Assembly (NCBI RefSeq): GCF_030013205.1
Contig: NZ_CP122648.1
Length of the DNA: 64,000 nucleotides
Direction: 5' to 3' (one strand)
Origin: Escherichia coli
GTDB lineage: Bacteria > Pseudomonadota > Gammaproteobacteria > Enterobacterales > Enterobacteriaceae
Positions 27,809 to 38,377 of the stretch are shown here, piece by piece. Position 1 is the first letter of the stretch, and the number at the start of each line of letters is the position of its first letter. Under the pieces are notes generated by a model. The model did no database searches and was not told the DNA's origin. It worked only from the letters and a program-made list of their open reading frames with translations. The translations under genes were made by a program, and so were the position numbers.

Positions 27809-27969
27809 GGGTAAAAATCCGGTGGGTAAAATTATTTTATCCACTTTTTACCCGTCATGGAGTGCGGCTGTCAACGATCTGACGCGAACCATGACGAACC
27901 GTGAATATACGGAAGGCTTGATATTCAGGGTATTTTGCGGACTGGTACGGATGGGAGCGAACTGATAAA

Positions 27970-27991
27970 TGGTGTCCCTGCAGAAATCATC
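27970..27991. repeat. argW-derived att copy at the junction of the two tandem islands
   Basis: TGGTGTCCCTGCAGAAATCATC versus argW TGGTGTCCCCTGCAGGAATCGA (one missing C, two mismatches). Confidence 0.7.
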
Positions 27992-28205
27992 TTAATTATT
28001 ATCATATTGATTTATATGTTATTTATTTTAGCCATCTTGTTTTTGTACCCGTTTTGTACCCGTTTTATTCTATTCCCAATTTAAACTTCGATTCTGGAAA
28101 GGTGAGTAGGGGAGGTTATCATTTTATGTATCATTGTTGTAGACACAGAATAATTACTCGCCTATCCTCACTGTATACACACCATAGATACAGGAGTTAA
28201 CCCAC

Positions 28206-28454
28206 ATGCGCACACAGGTTGTATTGCAAAAATGGGGTAACAGCATTGCCCTTCGACTAACGGGAAACCTTAAAACCGTTCCGGGTTTTTCAGTGGGTGA
28301 TATCGTCAACGTTGAAATTAGTGAAAAAGGGCTTTTTGTAGAAAAGCCTGCACGCCGTCGCCTGAGTGAAGCCGAACTACTCGCCGGGATAACGCCAGTT
28401 ACAGCGCACGCTGACGAAATTGCCACCCCATTCAATGAGGAGGTTGATTACTGA
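28206..28454 (+). CDS. MazE/PemI/ChpS-family antitoxin (AbrB/SpoVT fold)
   Basis: 82-aa ORF MRTQVVLQKWGNSIALRLTGNLKTVPGFSVGDIVNVEISEKGLFVEKP... Confidence 0.8.
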   Translation: MRTQVVLQKWGNSIALRLTGNLKTVPGFSVGDIVNVEISEKGLFVEKPARRRLSEAELLAGITPVTAHADEIATPFNEEVDY

Positions 28455-28798
28455 TGTTTGTACCTAAGCGTGGTGATATTTGCTGGCTGGATTTTGAGCC
28501 GCAGAAAGGAAAAGAGATCGGAAAGTATCGCCCGGCACTCATACTATCCCATGAGCAATATAACCGACTCACCGGGCTTGTCATATGCTGCCCCATAAGT
28601 ACGAGCATACGAAATGCTCCCACAGAAGTTCCGGTAACAAATCTGGACGCCCCCAGCGTGGTAGCAACCACACTCATTCAAACCCTTGACTGGCGTCAGC
28701 GGAAAGCGCGCTTAATCACAGAGGCAGAAGATGGGGTATTTAATGATGTGCTTGAAAGAGTCATTACTCTGATTGGTGGAGAGCATCTGCTTAAGTAA
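28454..28798 (+). CDS. MazF/PemK-family endoribonuclease toxin
   Basis: 114-aa ORF MFVPKRGDICWLDFEPQKGKEIGKYRPALILSHEQYNRLTGLVICCPISTS..., start overlapping the antitoxin stop. Confidence 0.8.
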   Translation: MFVPKRGDICWLDFEPQKGKEIGKYRPALILSHEQYNRLTGLVICCPISTSIRNAPTEVPVTNLDAPSVVATTLIQTLDWRQRKARLITEAEDGVFNDVLERVITLIGGEHLLK

Positions 28799-28841
28799 AA
28801 GGAGGGCTGAGAAGCCCTCAACGTTACCGGAAATTTCCTTG

Positions 28842-30113
28842 CTATTCTTTCCAGTCAATCCCATCCAGTAAGCACCCTGCCTCATATTGCCCCACCACCC
28901 AGTCAAGGTTACAGGACTCATAGAACGCGAGGCGATTATACTGAGGCTCGTTTTTTACCAGGCCACGAACGGAACCACGCTGCCAGTACAGACACAGATT
29001 GGCAAGAGGTGTGATCAATACAGCATTGTCCGGGAAAAATGGAACGGTCACAGCCGGGAGATTCCCCAGAACGGGATTTTTAATGATTTCCTCGTTAAGC
29101 AAAATTTCCTGATTCATCTGCGATGGATCAAGACGGTTTATCAAAGGCCATTGTTTACGGACCAGCGTATTGTGACTGCATACGGCCACAATGCCTTCCT
29201 GCCACTGTTCATCAATCATGGATTGCCAGGCATCCAGAACGAGCGCATCTATCGTATGGTGTGTACCGCGTATATTACTTTTCGGTGATGAGACAGAAAG
29301 GCCGCTGATAACCCTTCCCGCCGCTTCATTTCGAAACTTCTGCAACCAGCCCACGCCGCAATCGTCACGCCCCGGATATGTTCCGGGATCTGATACATCG
29401 GCATAGTGCGTACCGTTAAAACCAATCTGAATCAAATCCAGCCATTTCTGGCGTTCAAAAGCAGCCCGGGCGCTTCCTTCAAGACCGTTTGCGGATGCGT
29501 GAGCATCAACATTGTCGTAGTTCAGCGCAAAATCAAAATTAACCTGCTCGCAGCGGTAGCCCCTTGAAACCAGTGAATGCGCCTGTAGTGGCGAGCGGCG
29601 CTCGTGAGGTGGCGATGTACGTGCTAACGGCCCCGAAGCGTCTACCAGCACAACCTGACCTGATATATCCGTAACAGGCACGGGAGTTATTTCAGCAAGG
29701 AAATTTGCCTGCCATCCACTGGCAAGCGTTGCACTCTGGCGGGGGACGGGTTCAACTTCTGACGAATAGCGCGCAGTGTCACCGGAAAAGTGCAAATCCT
29801 TCGGATGCTTTCCGGTTATCGACTCGATAGCGCAATTGAAAACCATCTGAGACTGTTGATTTCGTTGTGATACAACAGAATCAGCAGTGCAATTATAACG
29901 CTCAATGCCGTCGTTATTACCCCCACCGCTTGCAGTATGCAGGGTGTGAAGCTCAAGCTCACGCTCCAGTTTTTGATATTCATTGTCCAGCGCGCGACGC
30001 GTCTCATCGCTTATGCTTGCTGTGTTTGCTTTCAGGCGATTCCGGGACATTAATCCCCTGAGTCGGCTCACTATATCAGCGCCGTGCAAATGTGGAGTAT
30101 TCAGACCGCCCAT
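28842..30113 (-). CDS. P2 gpN-family major capsid protein homologue with divergent N-terminal region
   Basis: Start taken at internal ATG 30113 (TAATG overlap with the upstream gene stop). C-terminal two-thirds align by eye with P2 gpN (...YRCEQVNFDF..., ...GWLQKFRNEAAGRV..., ...GNLPAVTVPFFPDNAVLITPLANL..., ...YESCNLDWVVGQYEAGCL...). Confidence 0.7.
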   Translation of the reverse strand: MGGLNTPHLHGADIVSRLRGLMSRNRLKANTASISDETRRALDNEYQKLERELELHTLHTASGGGNNDGIERYNCTADSVVSQRNQQSQMVFNCAIESITGKHPKDLHFSGDTARYSSEVEPVPRQSATLASGWQANFLAEITPVPVTDISGQVVLVDASGPLARTSPPHERRSPLQAHSLVSRGYRCEQVNFDFALNYDNVDAHASANGLEGSARAAFERQKWLDLIQIGFNGTHYADVSDPGTYPGRDDCGVGWLQKFRNEAAGRVISGLSVSSPKSNIRGTHHTIDALVLDAWQSMIDEQWQEGIVAVCSHNTLVRKQWPLINRLDPSQMNQEILLNEEIIKNPVLGNLPAVTVPFFPDNAVLITPLANLCLYWQRGSVRGLVKNEPQYNRLAFYESCNLDWVVGQYEAGCLLDGIDWKE

Positions 30114-30823
30114 TACTGCCACCCCCGGCAGAGTTCTCTGCCCTCCGCAAGGTCGCGCATTTTTTCTGGATTCTGTCGCGCCGCGCTCCATTGTACAGGT
30201 GAAGGGGCGCTCCTGATTGCGCAGCTTACTGAATCCGGGAGTTTCTCCGGGCAATAACGCAGCGGGCTGGAGGTGTCGCTTTCGGTATCGTTAATCCGGC
30301 CGCGAATCATCCCGACACTTTCAGCAGTATCTGCCGCTTTCAGTGTTTCGCATATTTTCTTTTCTGCGTTATACAGCGGCTGGCCAAGTAGCTCACATAA
30401 ACCACGAATCAATAACAGAACAGGGGTCAGCTCGTTAATCAGTTCGGGAAGTGCTTTTGCAAATATCTCTGCCCGCAACTTATTATCAATGCTTTCGTAA
30501 GCACAACCAGCCTCTGCCGCGTTATAACGACACTCCAGTAGCCTGATGCGCGCTTCATCATGCAATACCCGCAGACGCTCAAGATTTTCTCGCGCCACAC
30601 CCGCCTGAATGGATAATTTCGCGGAGGCTTCCGTTTTTACGCCCAGCGCAGACAGGATTGAGTTCTGCCAGTCACGATCGAGAGATTCCAGCTCCCCTTT
30701 CGTCTGTTCGATAGTCGCTTCCAGATTGGTGATTAATGATTCCTGTTCACTGAGTTTTGCCATGGCTGTATCAAACTGTGCTTTACATACCTGATGTTCG
30801 GCGCTTGCCTGAGTTATATCCAT
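30113..30823 (-). CDS. Coiled-coil protein coupled to the capsid homologue (candidate scaffold, Sid or Psu-like morphogenetic factor)
   Basis: 236-aa helical ORF immediately upstream of and overlapping the capsid gene start; assignment is positional. Confidence 0.4.
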   Translation of the reverse strand: MDITQASAEHQVCKAQFDTAMAKLSEQESLITNLEATIEQTKGELESLDRDWQNSILSALGVKTEASAKLSIQAGVARENLERLRVLHDEARIRLLECRYNAAEAGCAYESIDNKLRAEIFAKALPELINELTPVLLLIRGLCELLGQPLYNAEKKICETLKAADTAESVGMIRGRINDTESDTSSPLRYCPEKLPDSVSCAIRSAPSPVQWSAARQNPEKMRDLAEGRELCRGWQ

Positions 30824-30873
30824 TATTTGCTCCTGTAATACATTTTTTTACTTACGCCGATTTTTTCCATATT

Positions 30874-30934
30874 GCGTAATACATTCCAGCCGATTTTGTT
30901 CTCGTAATACGCTCACAATACTGTTGTATTACGC
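30874..30934. promoter_or_regulatory. Three palindromic operator-like sites GCGTA(A/T)TACGC in the divergent promoter region
   Basis: Sites at 30874-30882, 30903-30912 and 30926-30934 between the coiled-coil gene start (30823) and the RHH gene start (30989); further copies at 31014-31024, 31545-31555 and 31906-31913. Confidence 0.55.
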
Positions 30935-30988
30935 TTTCTTATATCGCGGGTGTTAAATCCCGGCATAAACAATCAGGGAGGCAACACG

Positions 30989-31222
30989 ATGAAAAAACAA
31001 AAGAAAATGCGATGCGTATTACGCTGTATTCGTATCCCGCACGAAATCGACCATAAAATAAATCAGATATGTGAGGACAGAGAGATGAACTACTCCCAGT
31101 GCGTCAGAATGTTTATCAGTCAGGGAATTAAGGCCGGGGAAAAGCAGGAAGAAGACCACAACGGGCGCAATGTAGCGGGGGATGTGTGGGCCTGGGCAAA
31201 TGACCAGAACCACACGACGTAA
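30989..31222 (+). CDS. Small ribbon-helix-helix-like putative transcriptional regulator
   Basis: 77-aa product MKKQKKMRCVLRCIRIPHEIDHKINQICEDREMNYSQCVRMFISQGIKAG...; GGGAGG RBS 8 nt upstream; divergent from the capsid operon. Confidence 0.45.
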   Translation: MKKQKKMRCVLRCIRIPHEIDHKINQICEDREMNYSQCVRMFISQGIKAGEKQEEDHNGRNVAGDVWAWANDQNHTT

Positions 31223-31272
31223 TACAGAAATAACGCAGCCGGTCACACTCGCTGGCTGTGTTATACAAATCA

Positions 31273-31455
31273 CTATGAAGTTTTCGACTTCCTGCGCTTA
31301 GTAATGCGTACAAACGACTCAAGCGTACAAAAACAAGCCCCACACTCAATATTGTTGCACTGGTAATACGTTCTGTAGATGTTTTGTTCGTGTTCTTCCA
31401 ACGAACGACCACGGGTGCGAGCTGAAGCGCCACAGGCCGGGCAAGGGAAAGACAT
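31273..31455 (-). CDS. Ogr/Delta-family zinc-finger late-gene transcriptional activator
   Basis: 60-aa ORF MSFPCPACGASARTRGRSLEEHEQNIYRTYYQCNNIECGACFCTLESF... with the CPxC...RT.R...YxQCxNxxCxxxFxTxES pattern of P2 Ogr. Confidence 0.8.
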   Translation of the reverse strand: MSFPCPACGASARTRGRSLEEHEQNIYRTYYQCNNIECGACFCTLESFVRITKRRKSKTS

Positions 31456-31817
31456 ATCGCGCTCCTCTTACTGGCGTGAAATTTAACCTATTATATCTTC
31501 CGTTGCCTCCTCTGGCTGTATCAAATAAATCCGCGATGGTCGCTGCGTATTACGCGCAGACACACCGTTCCCATGCTCACTCCTCACATTCCCCGTATCA
31601 ATTCTCTCTTGCCGTAAGAACGGCTCTGGCTGGCGATAAAACTAACCCGGTCAGGCATTCCCGCAGTCTTTAGCGAAAGATGTAATTTACCCCCTGAAAC
31701 GCGGGCTGTTCCCCCGTCACCTGCGCGCGAAAAACTCACCGTTTTTTGTGCACGCACGAAATCGCCCTCCGGGCGCGCCAGTACCGGGCCGGATGGGCAA
31801 AAAGTTACTCTAAAAAA

Positions 31818-31845
31818 TTGTGCAAATTTGTGCACTTTTGTGCAG
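31818..31845. promoter_or_regulatory. Three direct TTGTGCA repeats with 10-bp phasing (operator-like)
   Basis: TTGTGCAAATTTGTGCACTTTTGTGCAG; a fourth TTGTGCAC at 31746-31753. Confidence 0.45.
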
Positions 31846-32059
31846 ATGAACAACAGCGTCAAAAAGAGTGCTTTTGAGAGATTTTTTATGGCAACTGCGC
31901 CGCGTGTATTACGTTTTTACCATCCCCGCCGCGCATGTACATACTTCATTTTTCTGCCAAACAACAGGGCAACTCCCCGTGACTGACAGCCCCAAAAAAT
32001 CAATGATTAATGTTGCGTCTTTGTTAGAGGTCAGATCAGTTGTTTTGGGACTCTGCCTC

Positions 32060-32383
32060 AAAATCCGGTAGGGGGTGCGGAAACGGGTTACAAAGGTTAC
32101 ACCCCCCTAAAACACACTATAATCATATGATTTTAAAACATATTTCTTGTAACCTTTTTGAGGTTACAGAAGGTTACACGAGGTTACAGCTCTCAAAAAC
32201 AGATTAATTATCAATTAATTATAAATTTAACCTGTAACCAACAGTAACCACTACATAAAGGTTACATGTAACCCTGTTGTAACCCGTTTGTAACCTTTTA
32301 AATTTATTATAATATATTGATATATAATACGTTTTTCTGTTTGTAACCTTTGTAACCCGTTTCCGCACCCCCCCCCGGATTTT
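32060..32383. repeat. Block of about 14 GGTTACA/TGTAACC repeats flanked by near-perfect inverted repeats of about 40 bp (candidate attP-like or origin region)
   Basis: Left arm AAAATCCGGTAGGGGGTGCGGAAACGGGTTACAAAGGTTACA (32060-32101) is the reverse complement of the right arm (about 32339-32383); AT-rich core with both-orientation GTAACC repeats. Confidence 0.6.
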
Positions 32384-32628
32384 AGCGCGACCCTTTAAAA
32401 TGTTAATTAAACTCACTAACTCTGTATCACTCTCATTAACTCTCTATGATTGAAATGTATCTCACTGCTGTTTAACTCTTTCTGATAATCAAGAAAGGAG
32501 AGCAAAAAACTGATGGCGCTACCGCTGCAATATGGCCACCATCGCATTGCTGTTACCGTTGGCTTTGGCCAACAAAAAAGGCCAGTGGAAAACTGACCTC
32601 TTTTGCTGTGAATGTAGTGTTCTGCGGG

Positions 32629-33630
32629 TTACTCTACTGGCTCTTTTTGTTCAGTGAATGCCATGTTAGCTATCGGGTTAAACCTCATGGCATCCGCCAG
32701 ATAGTCGGGGGAAAAATGCGCATAAGTCATCGTTTGCTGGATAGTCGCATGTCCAAGAATCCGTTGTAATGTAACGATATTCCCACCGTTAATCATAAAG
32801 TGTGTGGCAAATGTATGACGCATGACATGCGTAGCCTGCCCCTTCGGTAAATCCGGCTTCACCTCCTGAAGGATCTCCCGGAACTTCAGATAATCAACCT
32901 GATACAACAACCCCGTCCGGCGGGTCTTAATCAGCGGCACGACCGAATCAGCCACAGGAACCGAACGGGATTTTCCGTTTTTGGTGTTAAAGAACGTCAC
33001 CCGGTTGCCAATGATGTGCTCTCCACGTAGTTCCGATGCTTCACTCCATCGGGCACCAGTAGAAAGACACAGAATGGCAACACGACGCGCATCACCCTCC
33101 AGTCGCTCAAGAAGCCGCTCAATCTCATCATCAGAAAGAAAGGCCATCTCTGTATTCTGAATTTTTAGCTTGCGTATACCGCGTACAGGGTTCGGGTTGT
33201 GAAAGACCTCAGCTTCAATCAGCACCGTGAACATGGTAGACAGAACGCACAAGTCACGATTAATGCTGGATGGCATTAAGCCGGCCTGTAATTTCTCTGA
33301 CCGATACTCAAGCATAAATTTTTGCGTCATCTGGCTGGCACGCGGATCTCCCATTTCACGAATCACTTTCTCCATCCGGATCCTGTAGGTATCACCGTAA
33401 GCCTGGTTACGGCCATCAAGCATCCACCATATATCAAGCAGCTCTGATAATCTCCGTCGATCAGCAGGTTTAGCCAGCCATGGGTTGTTATGGAAATTCT
33501 GTAAAATATGTTCTTTGAAGGCCTCCGCACTCCCTTTCCTGACAAAAATTTTACGTATCCGTTTGCCGTACGCCCCTTGGGGCCTGATATCGAGCAGCCA
33601 TCGCCCATCATCCATCTTTCTGATCGACAT
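32629..33630 (-). CDS. P2-type tyrosine integrase
   Basis: 333-aa ORF MSIRKMDDGRWLLDIRPQGAYGKRIRKIF...LSELLDIWW...INRDLCVLSTMFTVLIEAE...ILCLSTGARWSEA...GQATHVMRHTFATHFMINGGNIVTLQRILGHATIQQTMTYAHF matches P2 Int in length and motifs. Confidence 0.8.
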   Translation of the reverse strand: MSIRKMDDGRWLLDIRPQGAYGKRIRKIFVRKGSAEAFKEHILQNFHNNPWLAKPADRRRLSELLDIWWMLDGRNQAYGDTYRIRMEKVIREMGDPRASQMTQKFMLEYRSEKLQAGLMPSSINRDLCVLSTMFTVLIEAEVFHNPNPVRGIRKLKIQNTEMAFLSDDEIERLLERLEGDARRVAILCLSTGARWSEASELRGEHIIGNRVTFFNTKNGKSRSVPVADSVVPLIKTRRTGLLYQVDYLKFREILQEVKPDLPKGQATHVMRHTFATHFMINGGNIVTLQRILGHATIQQTMTYAHFSPDYLADAMRFNPIANMAFTEQKEPVE

Positions 33631-33632
33631 AC

Positions 33633-36302
33633 TTAAGCCCCCTCCTTGTTACTAAATATCCAGCATTTCAATACCTCCTTCTCTCTGGCCTCGGCTATTC
33701 CCCTCCCGGCGTTCGCCTGTCTGGATACCTCGCTACGGACGGGCTTGTATCCAATCAGCGATCGAGAACGGCCAGCCTTGAGAAGCTTTATCATTTCGGG
33801 ATTGGTTTGGGTCTTCACGTGGTGAACGGCGGCAACCTGCTCAAGTTGCGGGATACTGACGGCAAACTCATTCTGCCGTCCCTTGCCAAAATGATTTACG
33901 CCGTATGCTGTGATGCCGTCCAGATAGTCGAACGCCTCCCAGAACGCCATCACTTCCGGCAAGTCATCCATTACCGCTTTAGCCTGCTCCTCTGCCATTC
34001 GCTCCAGTTCCAGACATGTGGCATCAAGCCATTCATCCGGGATATCAATAACGCATTTCAGCGCCCTGACCAGTGCAATTAGTTGCGCGTGATTTTTGGC
34101 AATACGCTGATGGCGAATATTCTCGCAACCGTAAAGGCGGGTTGTTTCAGAATCCGAGAGTGCCATAAACAGATCCATAATCGCCCGCTCCTGGCTTACT
34201 GCCCGATGGATAAAACCTGATACCTGCTCAACGGGGTAAAGCTCCAGCCGTTTTGCTGCCAGTCGGCTATCTGGTGAGTGGCGTTTTTTATCGGTGTATA
34301 TACGTACCAGACGCTCGATAATTGCCGATGAGGCGTTTACCGTGGCATTCTGCGCAATCACGACAGCCCCTTTAAAAACGGGGTCATATGTGGCGTTATC
34401 ATTAGTTTTAACACCACGTACCCCAATACCACCGCCGTTATAGAGGCTTTTCAGGTTATCAAAGTCAAACGCACCTCTTTTTTGCGCATTGTCCCCCCGG
34501 TCTGCTTCAATCAGAACAACAGGTAATCCGGCGACCTGTCCAAAAGTTCGCTTCCAGCCTGATTCCGATCCTTTGGTTGGATCAACACCTTCATAGTTGT
34601 CACGGCCACACAAACGCCAACAAAAATCAATCAGCGTTGTTTTACCCGTTCCAGGCTCTCCGGTAATCTCAAGAAAAGGGTAAGACGTGTTTTTCTGCCT
34701 GATTTGTTCGCTGAACAACGAACCCAGCCAGAAGGCCAGGGTAATAATTCCCTTTTCACCAAAAGCCAGCCAGAGATCTTCCACCCAGGATATTGTGAAT
34801 TTATCCGGTTTTTTATAGTTAATCTGCAATATTGGTTTTTTATTCAATGGTTTTGCGTTTATGCCATCAATTTCAAAATAATCCTCTTCATTGATTTCGT
34901 AGGTTTTACCATTACAAACCGCGACATCATTAAACAGCCACGCGCCAATCTCTTTGTTGTATCCGATAAAATCCTGACCGATAACATTTTTTATTGCGGG
35001 AAGGTCATTTTTTATTAATGCATCAAGGTGCGCAGTCGTTCCGGTATAAATACCGCCTTTTGCCACATGCAACAGGCGTTTTTTAAATTCAGATGCGGAT
35101 GTTAATTGTCCTGATGTAAAGGTGTTTTTCACCGTCGCACCATCCGGGAACGTAACACGGAAGTAATACCATGCTTCATCCGTGTCATTGTTTCGAATGT
35201 AATAAAGCGGCGCCGGGTTACAGTTTGCGATTTCTTTTACAGCGCCGGATTCCTTAAGTGCAATTTTGCGCGCTTCATCTTCGTCAACATTTCGCTCATT
35301 TATGACGCGTTCAACAGCCTTCATATGGCGCTCAATATCCAGTTTGAACCAGAAAACACGGTTATCAAAAGTAAAATGAAATTCCTTTCGCTCACGAAAG
35401 GAAAACATTATCAGCGCCTTATCTCTCGGAGATTTTGCCAGCAATAAATCACCGTAATAACGGTATCTTTTCACATCATGGCCACGCAGCTTTCCGGCGA
35501 TGTGTAAATCATTCCAGTCGCGTTTATTGCTGTTTTTTCCTGGTAACGCCGCTGCCGTTCTCCAGCCGTCTTCGGCGCTGCGTTCTGCATGTTTTTTCGC
35601 ATAACGCTCACCCGCACGCCCGTTATCCAGCGCCCACACGATAACCGGACGGGGATTATCCCCGCACAGCTTCGCCAGCTCTTCCAGCGCCTTATCAGGG
35701 TAGTTTACGGCAGACATGACAGAAACGGCCGCAATGCCATTCTGGTTAAGGCTGATGGCATCAAAGATACCCTCACAAATCCAGATTTCTTTGGCCTTGC
35801 TTAAATCATCTCCCGGATAAGCCCACCACAACCCCTTGTAGCTGCCGGAAAAATTCGCCTTGCGCGCGAAGCGTTCCGGTCGGTCTATGATGCGCTCCCA
35901 CCACACGCCGTCAGCCAGTGTAAAACGCACAGTAGCGGCCTGTTCGCCGCTTTCCTTGTCCTGGTATCGCTCCTGAGTAAATGCTCCCTTCAGTGGCTCC
36001 ACAGCAATATTGCGTGCTTCCAGAAGATAAGCTGTCGCCGCTGCGTATGGATTGTCTTTCGTGCTGATATAGCGATCTGACCATGATGAAAACACATCCG
36101 GGTAAAGTTCTTTGGTCAACAGGTCTGTACCGCATTTATTTTCGCGCCCACAGTGCACGATGTACGGCCTTTCAAGGCTGGTAAAGAGCTCCTTCTTTCC
36201 ACATTGCGGACAAACACCATACCGGAGGTAGTTATTTTCTTCTTTGAAGTTGTAATCACGGATAAGACGGTTAATAATCTCTTTTCTGGTGTTATGTTTC
36301 AT
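33633..36302 (-). CDS. Primase-helicase replication protein (Cys4 zinc finger + TOPRIM primase + P4/D5-type NTPase)
   Basis: 889-aa ORF with CPQCGKK...HCGRENKCG, TOPRIM-like WICEGIFDAISL and ALDNGRAGERYA, Walker A GEPGTGKT and Walker B VVLIEAD. Confidence 0.75.
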   Translation of the reverse strand: MKHNTRKEIINRLIRDYNFKEENNYLRYGVCPQCGKKELFTSLERPYIVHCGRENKCGTDLLTKELYPDVFSSWSDRYISTKDNPYAAATAYLLEARNIAVEPLKGAFTQERYQDKESGEQAATVRFTLADGVWWERIIDRPERFARKANFSGSYKGLWWAYPGDDLSKAKEIWICEGIFDAISLNQNGIAAVSVMSAVNYPDKALEELAKLCGDNPRPVIVWALDNGRAGERYAKKHAERSAEDGWRTAAALPGKNSNKRDWNDLHIAGKLRGHDVKRYRYYGDLLLAKSPRDKALIMFSFRERKEFHFTFDNRVFWFKLDIERHMKAVERVINERNVDEDEARKIALKESGAVKEIANCNPAPLYYIRNNDTDEAWYYFRVTFPDGATVKNTFTSGQLTSASEFKKRLLHVAKGGIYTGTTAHLDALIKNDLPAIKNVIGQDFIGYNKEIGAWLFNDVAVCNGKTYEINEEDYFEIDGINAKPLNKKPILQINYKKPDKFTISWVEDLWLAFGEKGIITLAFWLGSLFSEQIRQKNTSYPFLEITGEPGTGKTTLIDFCWRLCGRDNYEGVDPTKGSESGWKRTFGQVAGLPVVLIEADRGDNAQKRGAFDFDNLKSLYNGGGIGVRGVKTNDNATYDPVFKGAVVIAQNATVNASSAIIERLVRIYTDKKRHSPDSRLAAKRLELYPVEQVSGFIHRAVSQERAIMDLFMALSDSETTRLYGCENIRHQRIAKNHAQLIALVRALKCVIDIPDEWLDATCLELERMAEEQAKAVMDDLPEVMAFWEAFDYLDGITAYGVNHFGKGRQNEFAVSIPQLEQVAAVHHVKTQTNPEMIKLLKAGRSRSLIGYKPVRSEVSRQANAGRGIAEAREKEVLKCWIFSNKEGA

Positions 36303-36314
36303 ATATAAATCCCC

Positions 36315-36344
36315 CCCACTGCACCTTTTGCAGTGGGTTTTTTA
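36315..36344. terminator. Hairpin plus T-run between the primase gene start and the upstream small ORF
   Basis: CCCACTGCA-CCTTTT-TGCAGTGGG followed by TTTTTTA; reads as a canonical terminator on the + strand. Confidence 0.4.
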
Positions 36345-36348
36345 TTAA

Positions 36349-36648
36349 TTACTCGTTGCTTATTGCTTTGGCAATCCCGGCGGTTTCGGCGCTATGCCAT
36401 GAAAAAATTCCGCCGGATGAATGCATACCAGATTTTATTGATTGTAATTCCCTATAAATAATGTTAGACAGAGATGCAATTTCTTCATTTATAATTTCTG
36501 CTGATGCTCCGCCATTTTTATCGTCAAAAACCACAGATATTAAACTGACGAGATTAATCACATCTGTGAGATCTTCCTTTGCACTTTCTGTAAAAAAGCC
36601 AACATATTCTCTATCTAAAAAATTTTCGCTATTCTGACGTTTAGACAT
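36349..36648 (-). CDS. Hypothetical protein (AT-rich, island-specific)
   Basis: 99-aa ORF, first of a run of small co-oriented genes upstream of the primase gene; no family recognised. Confidence 0.4.
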   Translation of the reverse strand: MSKRQNSENFLDREYVGFFTESAKEDLTDVINLVSLISVVFDDKNGGASAEIINEEIASLSNIIYRELQSIKSGMHSSGGIFSWHSAETAGIAKAISNE

Positions 36649-36715
36649 AAAAACTCCCCGACCCGTTAAGGCCGAAATATAAATTTAATTCAGTTATCAG
36701 TTGGTAATTCGGGAA

Positions 36716-36934
36716 TCAGGCGGAAAGCTGCGTCACCTTCAACGCCCTGAAATGTGTCATTCCCAGCTCTTCCAGCCCTTCGGCTGCGCGGCGTATGGCT
36801 TCGCCCGGTCCCGTTCCGTATACCGTTGCATGTGCATGTTTGGTTAACCCACGTTTATTAACGGCATAACCCAACACAAAGAAACGTTTTTCACCACTGC
36901 CATTATTTTTACGGGATGTTGAACGGGTTTTCAT
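36716..36934 (-). CDS. Hypothetical small protein
   Basis: 72-aa ORF; start overlaps the stop of the upstream gene (4-nt overlap). Confidence 0.35.
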   Translation of the reverse strand: MKTRSTSRKNNGSGEKRFFVLGYAVNKRGLTKHAHATVYGTGPGEAIRRAAEGLEELGMTHFRALKVTQLSA

Positions 36935-37119
36935 TTCTTCACCTTTACCACTGATGCTGTGAGTTCTTCTTCTGGCAACTGATATTTCGGCGCAATTTCT
37001 TCCGTATACCTGATAGCGTCCCTTGCCGCTTTTCCTTTTGATTTATATTTATATGTGGTCCGGTAGTTTTCTTCCTCTCCTGTTACCACATTACGCAATT
37101 TAATATGAATCTCGTACAT
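36931..37119 (-). CDS. Hypothetical small protein
   Basis: Start taken at MYEIHIKLRNVVTGEEENYRTTYKYKSKGKAARDAIRYTEE...; the track ORF extends 10 codons further upstream. Confidence 0.35.
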   Translation of the reverse strand: MYEIHIKLRNVVTGEEENYRTTYKYKSKGKAARDAIRYTEEIAPKYQLPEEELTASVVKVKK

Positions 37120-37121
37120 CG

Positions 37122-37304
37122 TTACCCCTCCATGATTTTTACTGCGCATTTGTGGGTTAATCGCCCCTGTTCATTCGTGCGGCTGTACTCCATGCGGCTG
37201 GCAGCACGCAGGGCATCATCACAGGTCTGATATTCCCTGACATGAAAAAACTGACGAACGTCGCCGCTCTGGCAGTTAATCAGGGTGATAAGGAGCTTAA
37301 ACAT
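37122..37304 (-). CDS. Hypothetical small protein
   Basis: Start taken at MFKLLITLINCQSGDVRQFFHVREYQTCDDALRAASRMEY...; the longer track ORF overlaps the upstream gene. Confidence 0.3.
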   Translation of the reverse strand: MFKLLITLINCQSGDVRQFFHVREYQTCDDALRAASRMEYSRTNEQGRLTHKCAVKIMEG

Positions 37305-37824
37305 TGCACGCCTCCCGGATACGAATACGGGCAACAGAGACCAGACGGGATGCCGGAAGCAGGGCGCGCGCTTCGCGCTCACTGGCGGCGGTAACGGTAT
37401 GAAGGCGGATATTTTTACCGTGGCACTGCATAAAGCGCCAGATAAAATCAGGGCGTGTTGATATAGCCATTTTGGCGGCTCCTTTGTCTAATTTACGGAG
37501 TCTCGCCAGCACGCTGCTAAACATGGTGGCGGGACGTAACAGGGTTAGCAGACTGGTGACAAAGAAACCAGCAGGCCTTACGGCCTCCCCATTACGCCCC
37601 GCCATAATACGGGAAAGGGTGGTATTACGGGCACAAAAAAACCGCATTACGGAAATATAGCGGCTACCCGCTTTGTCAATCAGGCTGCTAAACCCGGCAC
37701 CCGCTTTATGAGGTGCGGGCAAACGATACGCCATGACAAAAAAGCGAGTCAAGCAATATTGCAAATTATTTTTGCGTGATTGCGCTGAGTAATTGATTTT
37801 TAAGAGTAAAAAAGCCATAATCAT
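37297..37824 (-). CDS. Hypothetical protein (basic, Arg/Ala-rich)
   Basis: 175-aa ORF, first gene downstream of alpA; true start may be the internal MAYRLPAPHKAG... Confidence 0.35.
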   Translation of the reverse strand: MIMAFLLLKINYSAQSRKNNLQYCLTRFFVMAYRLPAPHKAGAGFSSLIDKAGSRYISVMRFFCARNTTLSRIMAGRNGEAVRPAGFFVTSLLTLLRPATMFSSVLARLRKLDKGAAKMAISTRPDFIWRFMQCHGKNIRLHTVTAASEREARALLPASRLVSVARIRIREACNV

Positions 37825-37885
37825 TTCTGCCTATTATTTCTTATTGTTGGTTTCAGGTGCACTAAATGCACATCCTTGACTGGTT

Positions 37886-37917
37886 GGCTCGCTAGCTTTA
37901 GCGAGCTTCTTTTTTGC
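37886..37917 (+). terminator. Plus-strand intrinsic terminator-like hairpin with no annotated plus-strand gene upstream
   Basis: GCTCGCTA-GCTT-TAGCGAGC followed by TTCTTTTTTG; a second hairpin GGTGCACTAAATGCACATCC lies about 20 nt upstream. Confidence 0.4.
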
Positions 37918-38377
37918 TCTGCAGCCAGTACCCGGCCTCCTTCCCTCACATGTAGTCATGTGCTCATTCCAGTCAGGTGGATAATGCTGTATTACCGGAC
38001 ATCCGGTTATGATGTTTAAAGCGTTTGTTTGTTTATGCCACGTGGAGAATATACCCACGCCGCCATTACTTGTATTTATCATAACAGTTCATCCAATTCG
38101 GTTAATGTAACCGGAATAACTCAATTTCATACACTGTAAATAAATGCTGATTTTAAACTTAGCTCCTTGGAATATATTTCTTACGTGTGACGTACAGGTG
38201 AAAATATCCCTCTGATAGTCCATTTTCTTTTATTGGGTCACATCTTTTTACTCCGGTTCCCTTAACAAGGGTAGAGCATCTTTTAAACCATGAATGCATC
38301 TTTGGTTAAGTGATGTTTCTTATTGAATGAAATGTTTAGGCGCATATCGCGCCATGCTGACTATAAAGTGAAAATAA

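Follow-up and report, generated by a model that had tools for sequence, protein, structure and literature searches.

A gene pair resembling an antitoxin and a MazF/PemK-type toxin lies at the tRNA-distal end of an island in the Escherichia coli chromosome, and upstream of it an 11-bp sequence is duplicated in tandem. The locus raises two questions: whether the repeat belongs to the toxin–antitoxin (TA) unit, and what the pair does for the element that carries it. Comparison of the window (the whole 64-kb stretch of chromosomal DNA that was analysed) with related loci points to two adjacent, independent features, a reading to which we assign a probability of roughly 0.78: a self-contained MazEF cassette with its own control, and a repeat that would form the inner edge of the attR module.

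The island at argW

The island occupies 27970-40659 (12.7 kb) and is integrated at argW; it is delimited by the 3′ end of this tRNA gene (TGGTGTCCCCTGCAGGAATC) and by an imperfect repetition of that end. Its landmarks are as follows.

27970-27988, plus strand: attR core TGGTGTCCCTGCAGAAATC, an imperfect copy of the argW 3′ end in direct reading
28842-30113, minus strand: P2-family MCP-like gene (423 aa), about 37% identical to the 186 and PSP3 capsid proteins
30113-30823, minus strand: gene for a 236-aa protein, paired with the MCP-like gene
38378-38599: gene for an AlpA/Vis-like protein (AlpA family, Pfam)
39199-40461, minus strand: island tyrosine integrase (Pfam Arm-DNA-bind_3, 89 bits, N-terminal; Phage_int_M; Phage_integrase)
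40640-40659, plus strand: attL core in the 3′ end of tRNA-Arg(CCT) argW (ARAGORN, Rfam, sequence)
40640-40714, minus strand: tRNA-Arg(CCT) argW gene (ARAGORN, Rfam)

A CPS-53/KpLE1-like element, with its intS and gtr-type genes, lies to the left of 27970, so that the island sits between argW and this older prophage. Homology to islands in other flanking contexts begins at 27963-27970; strain ECCNB12-2 carries the same island with a different left flank, and there the homology begins at the same point. Between the attR copy and the CPS-53/KpLE1-like intS, a 10-bp tandem repeat at 27885-27904 (CGAACCATGA, two copies with one mismatch) may be a recombination-protein site of the older prophage's attL.

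The island encodes the integrase with its arm-binding domain, AlpA, a Toprim primase (PHROG 1139, 1005 bits; alpha-like), a second tyrosine recombinase, an Ogr/Delta zinc finger and, according to PGAP, an Icd-like gene. Measured against the core set of P4-like satellites (int, alpA, alpha, delta, sid, psu, epsilon), the island possesses a P4-type int and AlpA, together with the alpha-like primase, Ogr/Delta, a CI (C4-family) immunity RNA and the Icd-like gene, whereas neither psu nor sid is annotated by PGAP. Where P4 has sid and psu, there is instead the capsid-like pair, formed by the MCP homologue and the 236-aa protein, the latter with no phage match and no family in Pfam, PHROG or NCBIfam. 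By its gene content the island is thus a P4-related satellite that lacks recognisable psu and sid. We found no description, in the literature searched, of a satellite type with a P2-type capsid homologue and without psu/sid; such satellites are carried by about 1.2% of the complete E. coli genomes, and a satellite with such a capsid homologue of its own is, judged from its genes, a more unusual object than the TA pair. A provisional 19-mer query for the P2/P4 cos site had no match at ≤3 mismatches, a result that carries no weight.

Three further regions of the island deserve description. The stretch at 37522-37716, inside or beside the Icd-like ORF, matches C4 antisense RNA (Rfam, 79.7 bits) and isrK (52.1 bits) and is a P4-type RNA immunity region. 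Four iteron-like tandem arrays of 10-11 bp (AAATTTGTGC, AGGTTACAGA, ATTAATTATAA, TGTAACCCGGT) at 31814-32295, flanked by the Ogr/Delta gene and the second tyrosine recombinase, may constitute an ori/crr-type replication origin for the alpha-like primase. The second recombinase itself (32629-33630; 333 aa, Int_N and Phage_integrase) lies directly downstream of the primase gene and is kept across the whole satellite family, being truncated in strain K_EC180 (locus L001).

The TA pair is the last coding unit of the island, just inside attR, in agreement with the tRNA-distal location originally given for it. It is also, as had been predicted, the sole plus-strand coding unit at that end; one other small plus-strand ORF occurs inside the island (30989-31222).

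The MazEF cassette and its control region

The conserved cassette extends from approximately 28122, where the match to islands of the hpt type starts, to 28800. The elements in it and directly behind it are as follows.

28127-28192, plus strand: TA promoter and operator region (promoter scan, inverted repeat, cross-genus conservation)
28127-28132, plus strand: operator-like half-site TGTATC (inverted repeat / alignment)
28138-28146, plus strand: operator-like half-site TGTAGACAC (paired 9-mer)
28140-28145, plus strand: -35 element TAGACA (promoter scan)
28163-28168, plus strand: -10 element TATCCT (promoter scan)
28172-28180, plus strand: operator-like half-site TGTATACAC (paired 9-mer)
28184-28192, plus strand: operator-like half-site ATAGATACA (inverted repeat / alignment)
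28206-28454, plus strand: mazE-like antitoxin gene (82 aa), with an N-terminal half of the SpoVT/AbrB DNA-binding type and an acidic, toxin-binding tail at the C-terminus
28454-28798, plus strand: mazF-like endoribonuclease toxin gene (114 aa)
28802-28819, minus strand: GC-rich hairpin that separates mazF from the convergent capsid-like genes (terminator scan)

Matches in Pfam, the PDB and NCBIfam bear out the assignment of the pair to the MazEF/PemIK type. The toxin matches Pfam PemK_toxin (PF02452) with 88.5 bits (E = 4e-25; cutoff 23.1), residues 5-105 covering profile positions 1-107 of 109, and finds MazF structures in the PDB with a best E of 9e-20 (8e-17 for E. coli MazF). Its closest NCBIfam model is MazF (NF007386), at 92.1 bits against an equivalog cutoff of 120. 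These comparisons place the toxin in a distinct MazF subfamily, common to Salmonella, Yersinia, Vibrio and Shewanella, and not as an orthologue of the chromosomal MazF of E. coli. In the phage database there was no close phage-borne copy, the best match being 44% identical. With PemIK and Kis-Kid (plasmids R100 and R1) the cassette has in common PF02452 and the logic of addiction on a mobile element, although these systems are more distant (1e-6 for Kid, 1m1f, versus 1e-16 to 1e-19 for MazFs), and 'MazEF-type' is therefore a better label than 'PemIK'.

Against Pfam MazE_antitoxin (PF04014) the antitoxin scores 13 bits, under the gathering score of 24.7, the best of six homologues reaching E = 4e-4, and against the NCBIfam MazE model it gives 3.5e-4. 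A PDB search with the antitoxin alone retrieved solved MazE chains at 9e-5 (7d2n_E) to 3e-4, whilst a six-sequence profile reached 1mvf_D/1ub4_C at 4e-6, with query residues 7-80 aligned to residues 6-81 of the chain, so that the similarity to solved MazE runs over the full length and includes the toxin-binding tail. PGAP labels the two proteins AbrB/MazE/SpoVT family protein and PemK/MazF, respectively.

At the toxin active site, R26 corresponds to the catalytic Arg29 of E. coli MazF in the PDB alignment and is invariant across 21 aligned sequences. S49 occupies the position of Thr52, a conservative replacement and not an identity, with serine near-invariant within the subfamily. The subfamily alignment with E. 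coli MazF and the alignment to PDB entries give the same residue correspondence. The original prediction would have been weakened by a toxin without catalytic residues, and on this point it holds.

The organisation of the operon is that of a type II TA system: the antitoxin gene comes first, it overlaps the toxin gene by 1 nt (the TGA stop and the ATG start have A28454 in common, TGATG), and the pair has its own promoter with inverted-repeat operators, from which autoregulation is predicted. Shine-Dalgarno sequences precede both the mazE-like gene (AGGAG, 28192-28196) and the mazF-like gene (GAGGAGG, 28437-28443). The T-tract of the hairpin at 28802-28819 is on the minus strand, and the hairpin is therefore chiefly a terminator of the capsid-like operon. 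The island scan against Rfam gave no RNA family in the TA region. ACA occurs 8 times in the operon versus ~11 expected, a count that says nothing by itself, as this subfamily may cleave at another motif.

The mazE promoter sits within an imperfect inverted repeat. The paired 9-mers TGTA[G/T]A[C/T]AC, which start in the window at 28138 and 28172, are kept together with the -10 element upstream of mazE in Salmonella, Brenneria and Yersinia, and in Yersinia and Brenneria the 9-mers appear as the inverted pair GTATCTAC / GTAGATAC. From this conservation we infer that MazE binds the 9-mers as operators.

Relative to E. coli MazE-MazF (chpA; PDB 1ub4, 1mvf, 5ck9), the cassette has the same two folds and operon logic, with the antitoxin first, an overlap and a palindromic operator; the catalytic arginine is kept and MazE aligns end to end. 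The toxin is, however, only about 31% identical and falls short of the equivalog score, the serine stands in for Thr52, and both the operator sequence and the signature motifs KGKEIGKYRP and CCPISTSIR differ. The chpA pair is next to relA, whilst the window cassette is on a mobile satellite.

Relatives of the cassette do decay. In an hpt-type E. coli island with a capsid-like gene only 48% identical (GCA_020005525.1; L015, 7425-7800), mazE is intact and 95% identical whereas mazF is deleted down to a few codons, leaving a TA without toxin; in a Salmonella locus next to tRNA-Met (GCA_006159425.1; L004, 7274-8345), the N-terminal half of mazE has given way to an inserted relB/parE pair, and an apparently orphan mazF remains. 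The window toxin, moreover, has N54 where the subfamily nearly always has glycine. That the window pair is likewise a non-functional remnant, with a non-toxic toxin or a silent operon, nevertheless seems improbable, given that both ORFs are intact, the catalytic arginine and the Ser/Thr position are conserved, and promoter and operator are in place. Islands of the argW and hpt types also encode an identical toxin protein (WP_000497967.1). Across genera, pN stays at 0.14-0.27 with pS saturated at 0.71-0.90 (for the antitoxin gene, pN 0.18-0.27 with pS saturated), and both genes are therefore under purifying selection. As far as these comparisons go, the pair is a genuine but ordinary type II TA system of the MazE/MazF family; it is already annotated by PGAP and adds little that is new to TA biology.

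The tandem repeat and the attachment sites

The duplication upstream of the cassette is real and exact, although the coordinates first assigned to it (28044-28067) were one base off. The repeats of the two att arms are listed here.

28045-28066, plus strand: tandem GTACCCGTTTT, two copies (units 28045-28055 and 28056-28066), proposed integrase arm-type (P′-arm) sites of attR
40480-40529, plus strand: attL-side arm repeat region, which includes an inverted GGGTAC at 40480-40485
40506-40517, plus strand: attL-side att arm repeat ATACCCGTTTTT
40518-40529, plus strand: attL-side att arm repeat ATACCCATTTTA

TRF reports the array at 28041-28066 (period 11, 2.4 copies, 100% match, score 52), and it is the top-scoring array in the window. 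In the 64 kb there are just three exact copies of the 10-mer TACCCGTTTT (28046, 28057 and 40507), each within about 150 bp of one of the two att cores of the island; a one-mismatch copy is found at 40519, and all four copies are on one strand. Of these, the attL-side pair precedes the int start codon by 45-68 bp.

As it precedes mazE by 140-160 bp on the same strand, the repeat might be taken for an operator or other regulatory element of the mazEF operon, and the original prediction had placed it with the TA unit. Comparison across loci rules this out as far as such a comparison can, and we regard the idea as having next to no chance of being right. The repeat lies outside the cassette and is absent upstream of the identical or homologous mazEF of hpt-type E. 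coli islands; the regions upstream of mazE in Salmonella, Brenneria and Yersinia contain nothing like GTACCCGTTTT. It is present, conversely, beside unrelated cargo in strain STEC316, and the operon has its separate conserved promoter and operator at 28127-28192.

What the repeat does follow is the type of integrase and attachment site. Islands at argW with MazEF (the window, L001 and L010) have two copies of TACCC[G/A]TTT at both ends, and so does the argW island of STEC316 (L003), which carries Hok/Gef and the integrase DNA of which is 87% identical. Islands at hpt have two copies of ATTGATACAC at both ends instead, again irrespective of cargo (MazEF in ETEC6333, L002; Hok/Gef in strain 52F4, L011). 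At attR, the window and STEC316 are homologous across the core and onward to the end of the repeat, directly behind which the similarity breaks off. The 59 places at which the TA cassette was found in complete E. coli genomes divide into 19 argW-type and 40 hpt-type attR arms. K-mer sharing between the two att-proximal 200-bp stretches is marginal, being equalled by about 4% of random pairs, and the argument for arm sites therefore rests on the comparative data. These data indicate that the repeat belongs to the attR/integration module, outside the TA cassette, and tracks the integrase/att type and not the cargo.

Within that module, the repeats are most likely a pair of integrase arm-type sites: they are found in both att arms, they co-vary with the integrase type, and the integrase has an arm-binding domain, for which binding is predicted. 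Arm-type sites overlapping the int promoter are known for KplE1 IntS, also at argW (PMC2951348), and this precedent at the same tRNA, together with the Arm-DNA-bind_3 domain of the island integrase, makes Int sites the best reading. As in KplE1/CPS-53 IntS and lambda Int, short direct repeats occur in both arms, tens of bp from the core, with one set overlapping the int promoter region and an N-terminal arm-binding domain in the enzyme (PMC2951348); unlike in those systems, the sites here are putative, and the repeat GTACCC[G/A]TTT is specific to the island integrase.

The same repeats could be sites for an excisionase (recombination directionality factor, RDF) such as the AlpA/Vis-like protein, an alternative that we consider unlikely. 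Their period of 11-12 bp comes close to one helical turn, a spacing also reported for RDF sites (PMC7498355), and the island encodes a protein of the AlpA family. The AlpA-type HTH gene, furthermore, differs between argW-type and hpt-type islands along with the integrase, so that co-variation fits an RDF equally well and does not separate Int from RDF. In lambda and KplE1, Int arm-type sites occur on both arms whereas RDF sites are usually clustered on one. The presence of the motif on both att arms of the island is the typical Int pattern and, together with the dedicated arm-binding domain of the integrase, argues against the excisionase and for Int arm-type sites.

The cargo slot and the role of the cassette

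Among 5426 complete E. coli genomes, the TA cassette was found in 56, at 59 places and two integration sites, and never on a plasmid. It is always on this satellite and always beside the capsid-like gene pair. The pair itself was found, by megablast and by a more sensitive blastn, only in the same 56 genomes, all of which have the TA. Three strains (ETEC4067, ETEC1732 and ETEC1734) have two MazEF-bearing satellites each, at argW and at hpt-gcd. The scarcity of the cassette and its two integration sites confirm it as island cargo and not core. An origin within the CPS-53/KpLE1-like prophage, or the core chromosome, was also rejected, as the attR copy at 27970 separates the two, the flank differs in ECCNB12-2, and the island occurs at the hpt-gcd site too.

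The original prediction had further placed the pair at a variable island end, of the kind that usually holds anti-phage or addiction cargo. At the scale of the family this stands. The family primase is present in 65 complete E. coli genomes, at 71 places; about five in six family members carry MazEF, and the two examined members without it (L003, L011) are laid out differently and end in Hok/Gef. Type I toxin genes of the Hok/Gef type were observed at the att-proximal end at L003 10601-10744, L011 6733-6879 and L017 8034-8174. The slot is empty in a Klebsiella relative, holds Hok/Gef in another E. coli lineage, has received RelB/ParE in the Salmonella locus described above, and retains mazE without mazF in the L015 island; in an Erwinia relative it holds GmrSD, which neighbours a type I restriction subunit. 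A Salmonella homologue with a 79% identical toxin has the same convergent position, beside a capsid-like gene only 50% identical. The slot repeatedly recruits TA modules of unrelated types. Within the E. coli lineage that carries the capsid-like pair, however, the claim of variability fails, since the cassette is fixed there (56/56).

Outside any satellite, the mazEF cassette is found alone in Brenneria and Yersinia. In two such loci (L008/L009, 7753-8363; ERR024938 and SRR28288615), the toxin of which NCBI labels Yersinia frederiksenii, it lies between mlaA and a fadL-type (Toluene_X) gene, with neither satellite nor tRNA. The mlaA/fadL-type neighbourhood contains argW in E. coli, and the lone cassette may be the relic of an old insertion.

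The arrangement resembles the psu-int hotspot of P4-like satellites, in which cargo that varies among relatives occupies the interval from the last morphogenesis gene to att/int, and in which P4 itself has a putative TA (gop/beta) (PMC9122126). It differs in that the window satellite has the P2-family capsid homologue and the 236-aa protein in place of recognisable psu or sid, and in that its slot shows, in E. coli, essentially two states and not hundreds. The survey of Rousset et al. 2022 was anchored on psu (PMC9122126), and elements like the window satellite would therefore not have been sampled. In these terms the TA is a module of a familiar type, located where one would look for it.

A working model for the locus can be outlined. 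The cassette would fill the cargo slot that separates attR from the last morphogenesis gene; there a sigma-70 promoter flanked by operator repeats would drive a translationally coupled mazE-mazF operon, MazE, alone or complexed with MazF, would repress the promoter, and the C-terminal tail of MazE would neutralise MazF. If the island were lost, or a phage shut off host expression, replenishment of MazE would end; the remaining MazE would be degraded, and free MazF would cleave cellular RNA, such that growth stops. Separately, the island integrase would contact the GTACCCGTTTT pair through its N-terminal arm-binding domain, with the two further copies in attL, next to the int promoter, as the match to the attR pair. 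In MazEF and Kis-Kid, the antitoxin or the complex represses the promoter, and the labile antitoxin is degraded once its synthesis stops, upon which the toxin cleaves RNA. The proposed mechanism is taken from that biology, and the sequence features at this locus are consistent with it.

The most likely selected role of the cassette is, on present comparisons, stabilisation of the satellite (addiction), with abortive-infection defence as a second role that does not exclude the first. Stabilisation is favoured because the slot otherwise holds modules of the addiction type in E. coli and Salmonella, and because TA modules stabilise integrative elements (e.g. PMC11062541). A cassette that serves primarily in abortive infection, excluding competing phages in parallel to the P4 defence hotspot, is plausible by analogy, though less likely than not. 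The position of the TA is analogous to the psu-int hotspot (PMC9122126; PMC8628076), the Erwinia relative has GmrSD in the same slot, and a published report describes MazEF as a defence element (PMC12151602). Against this, neither TA protein matched a model of PADLOC-DB v2 at E ≤ 0.01, the alternative cargo of the slot in E. coli and Salmonella again consists of addiction modules (Hok/Gef, RelB/ParE), and Brenneria and Yersinia have the cassette without a satellite. A functional integration of MazEF with the capsid-like module can also be imagined, for example if MazF were released upon helper induction or infection and cleaved host or helper transcripts, biasing assembly toward satellite particles. 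Although it would explain why the cassette has been kept convergent with the capsid-like pair (59/59 places in E. coli, and the Salmonella relatives) despite swapped integrase/att and primase, we hold this idea to be a long shot, and retain stabilisation as the likeliest role.

For the family, the analysis maps the cargo slot of a rare satellite lineage without psu and sid, and finds that it holds TA or defence genes. It also provides testable arm-site motifs, GTACCC[G/A]TTT for the argW-type integrase and ATTGATACAC for the hpt-type, and defines a conserved operator motif for this MazEF subfamily. Should the cassette prove to be an anti-phage or helper-manipulating device, the concept of satellite defence hotspots would extend beyond canonical P4-like elements.
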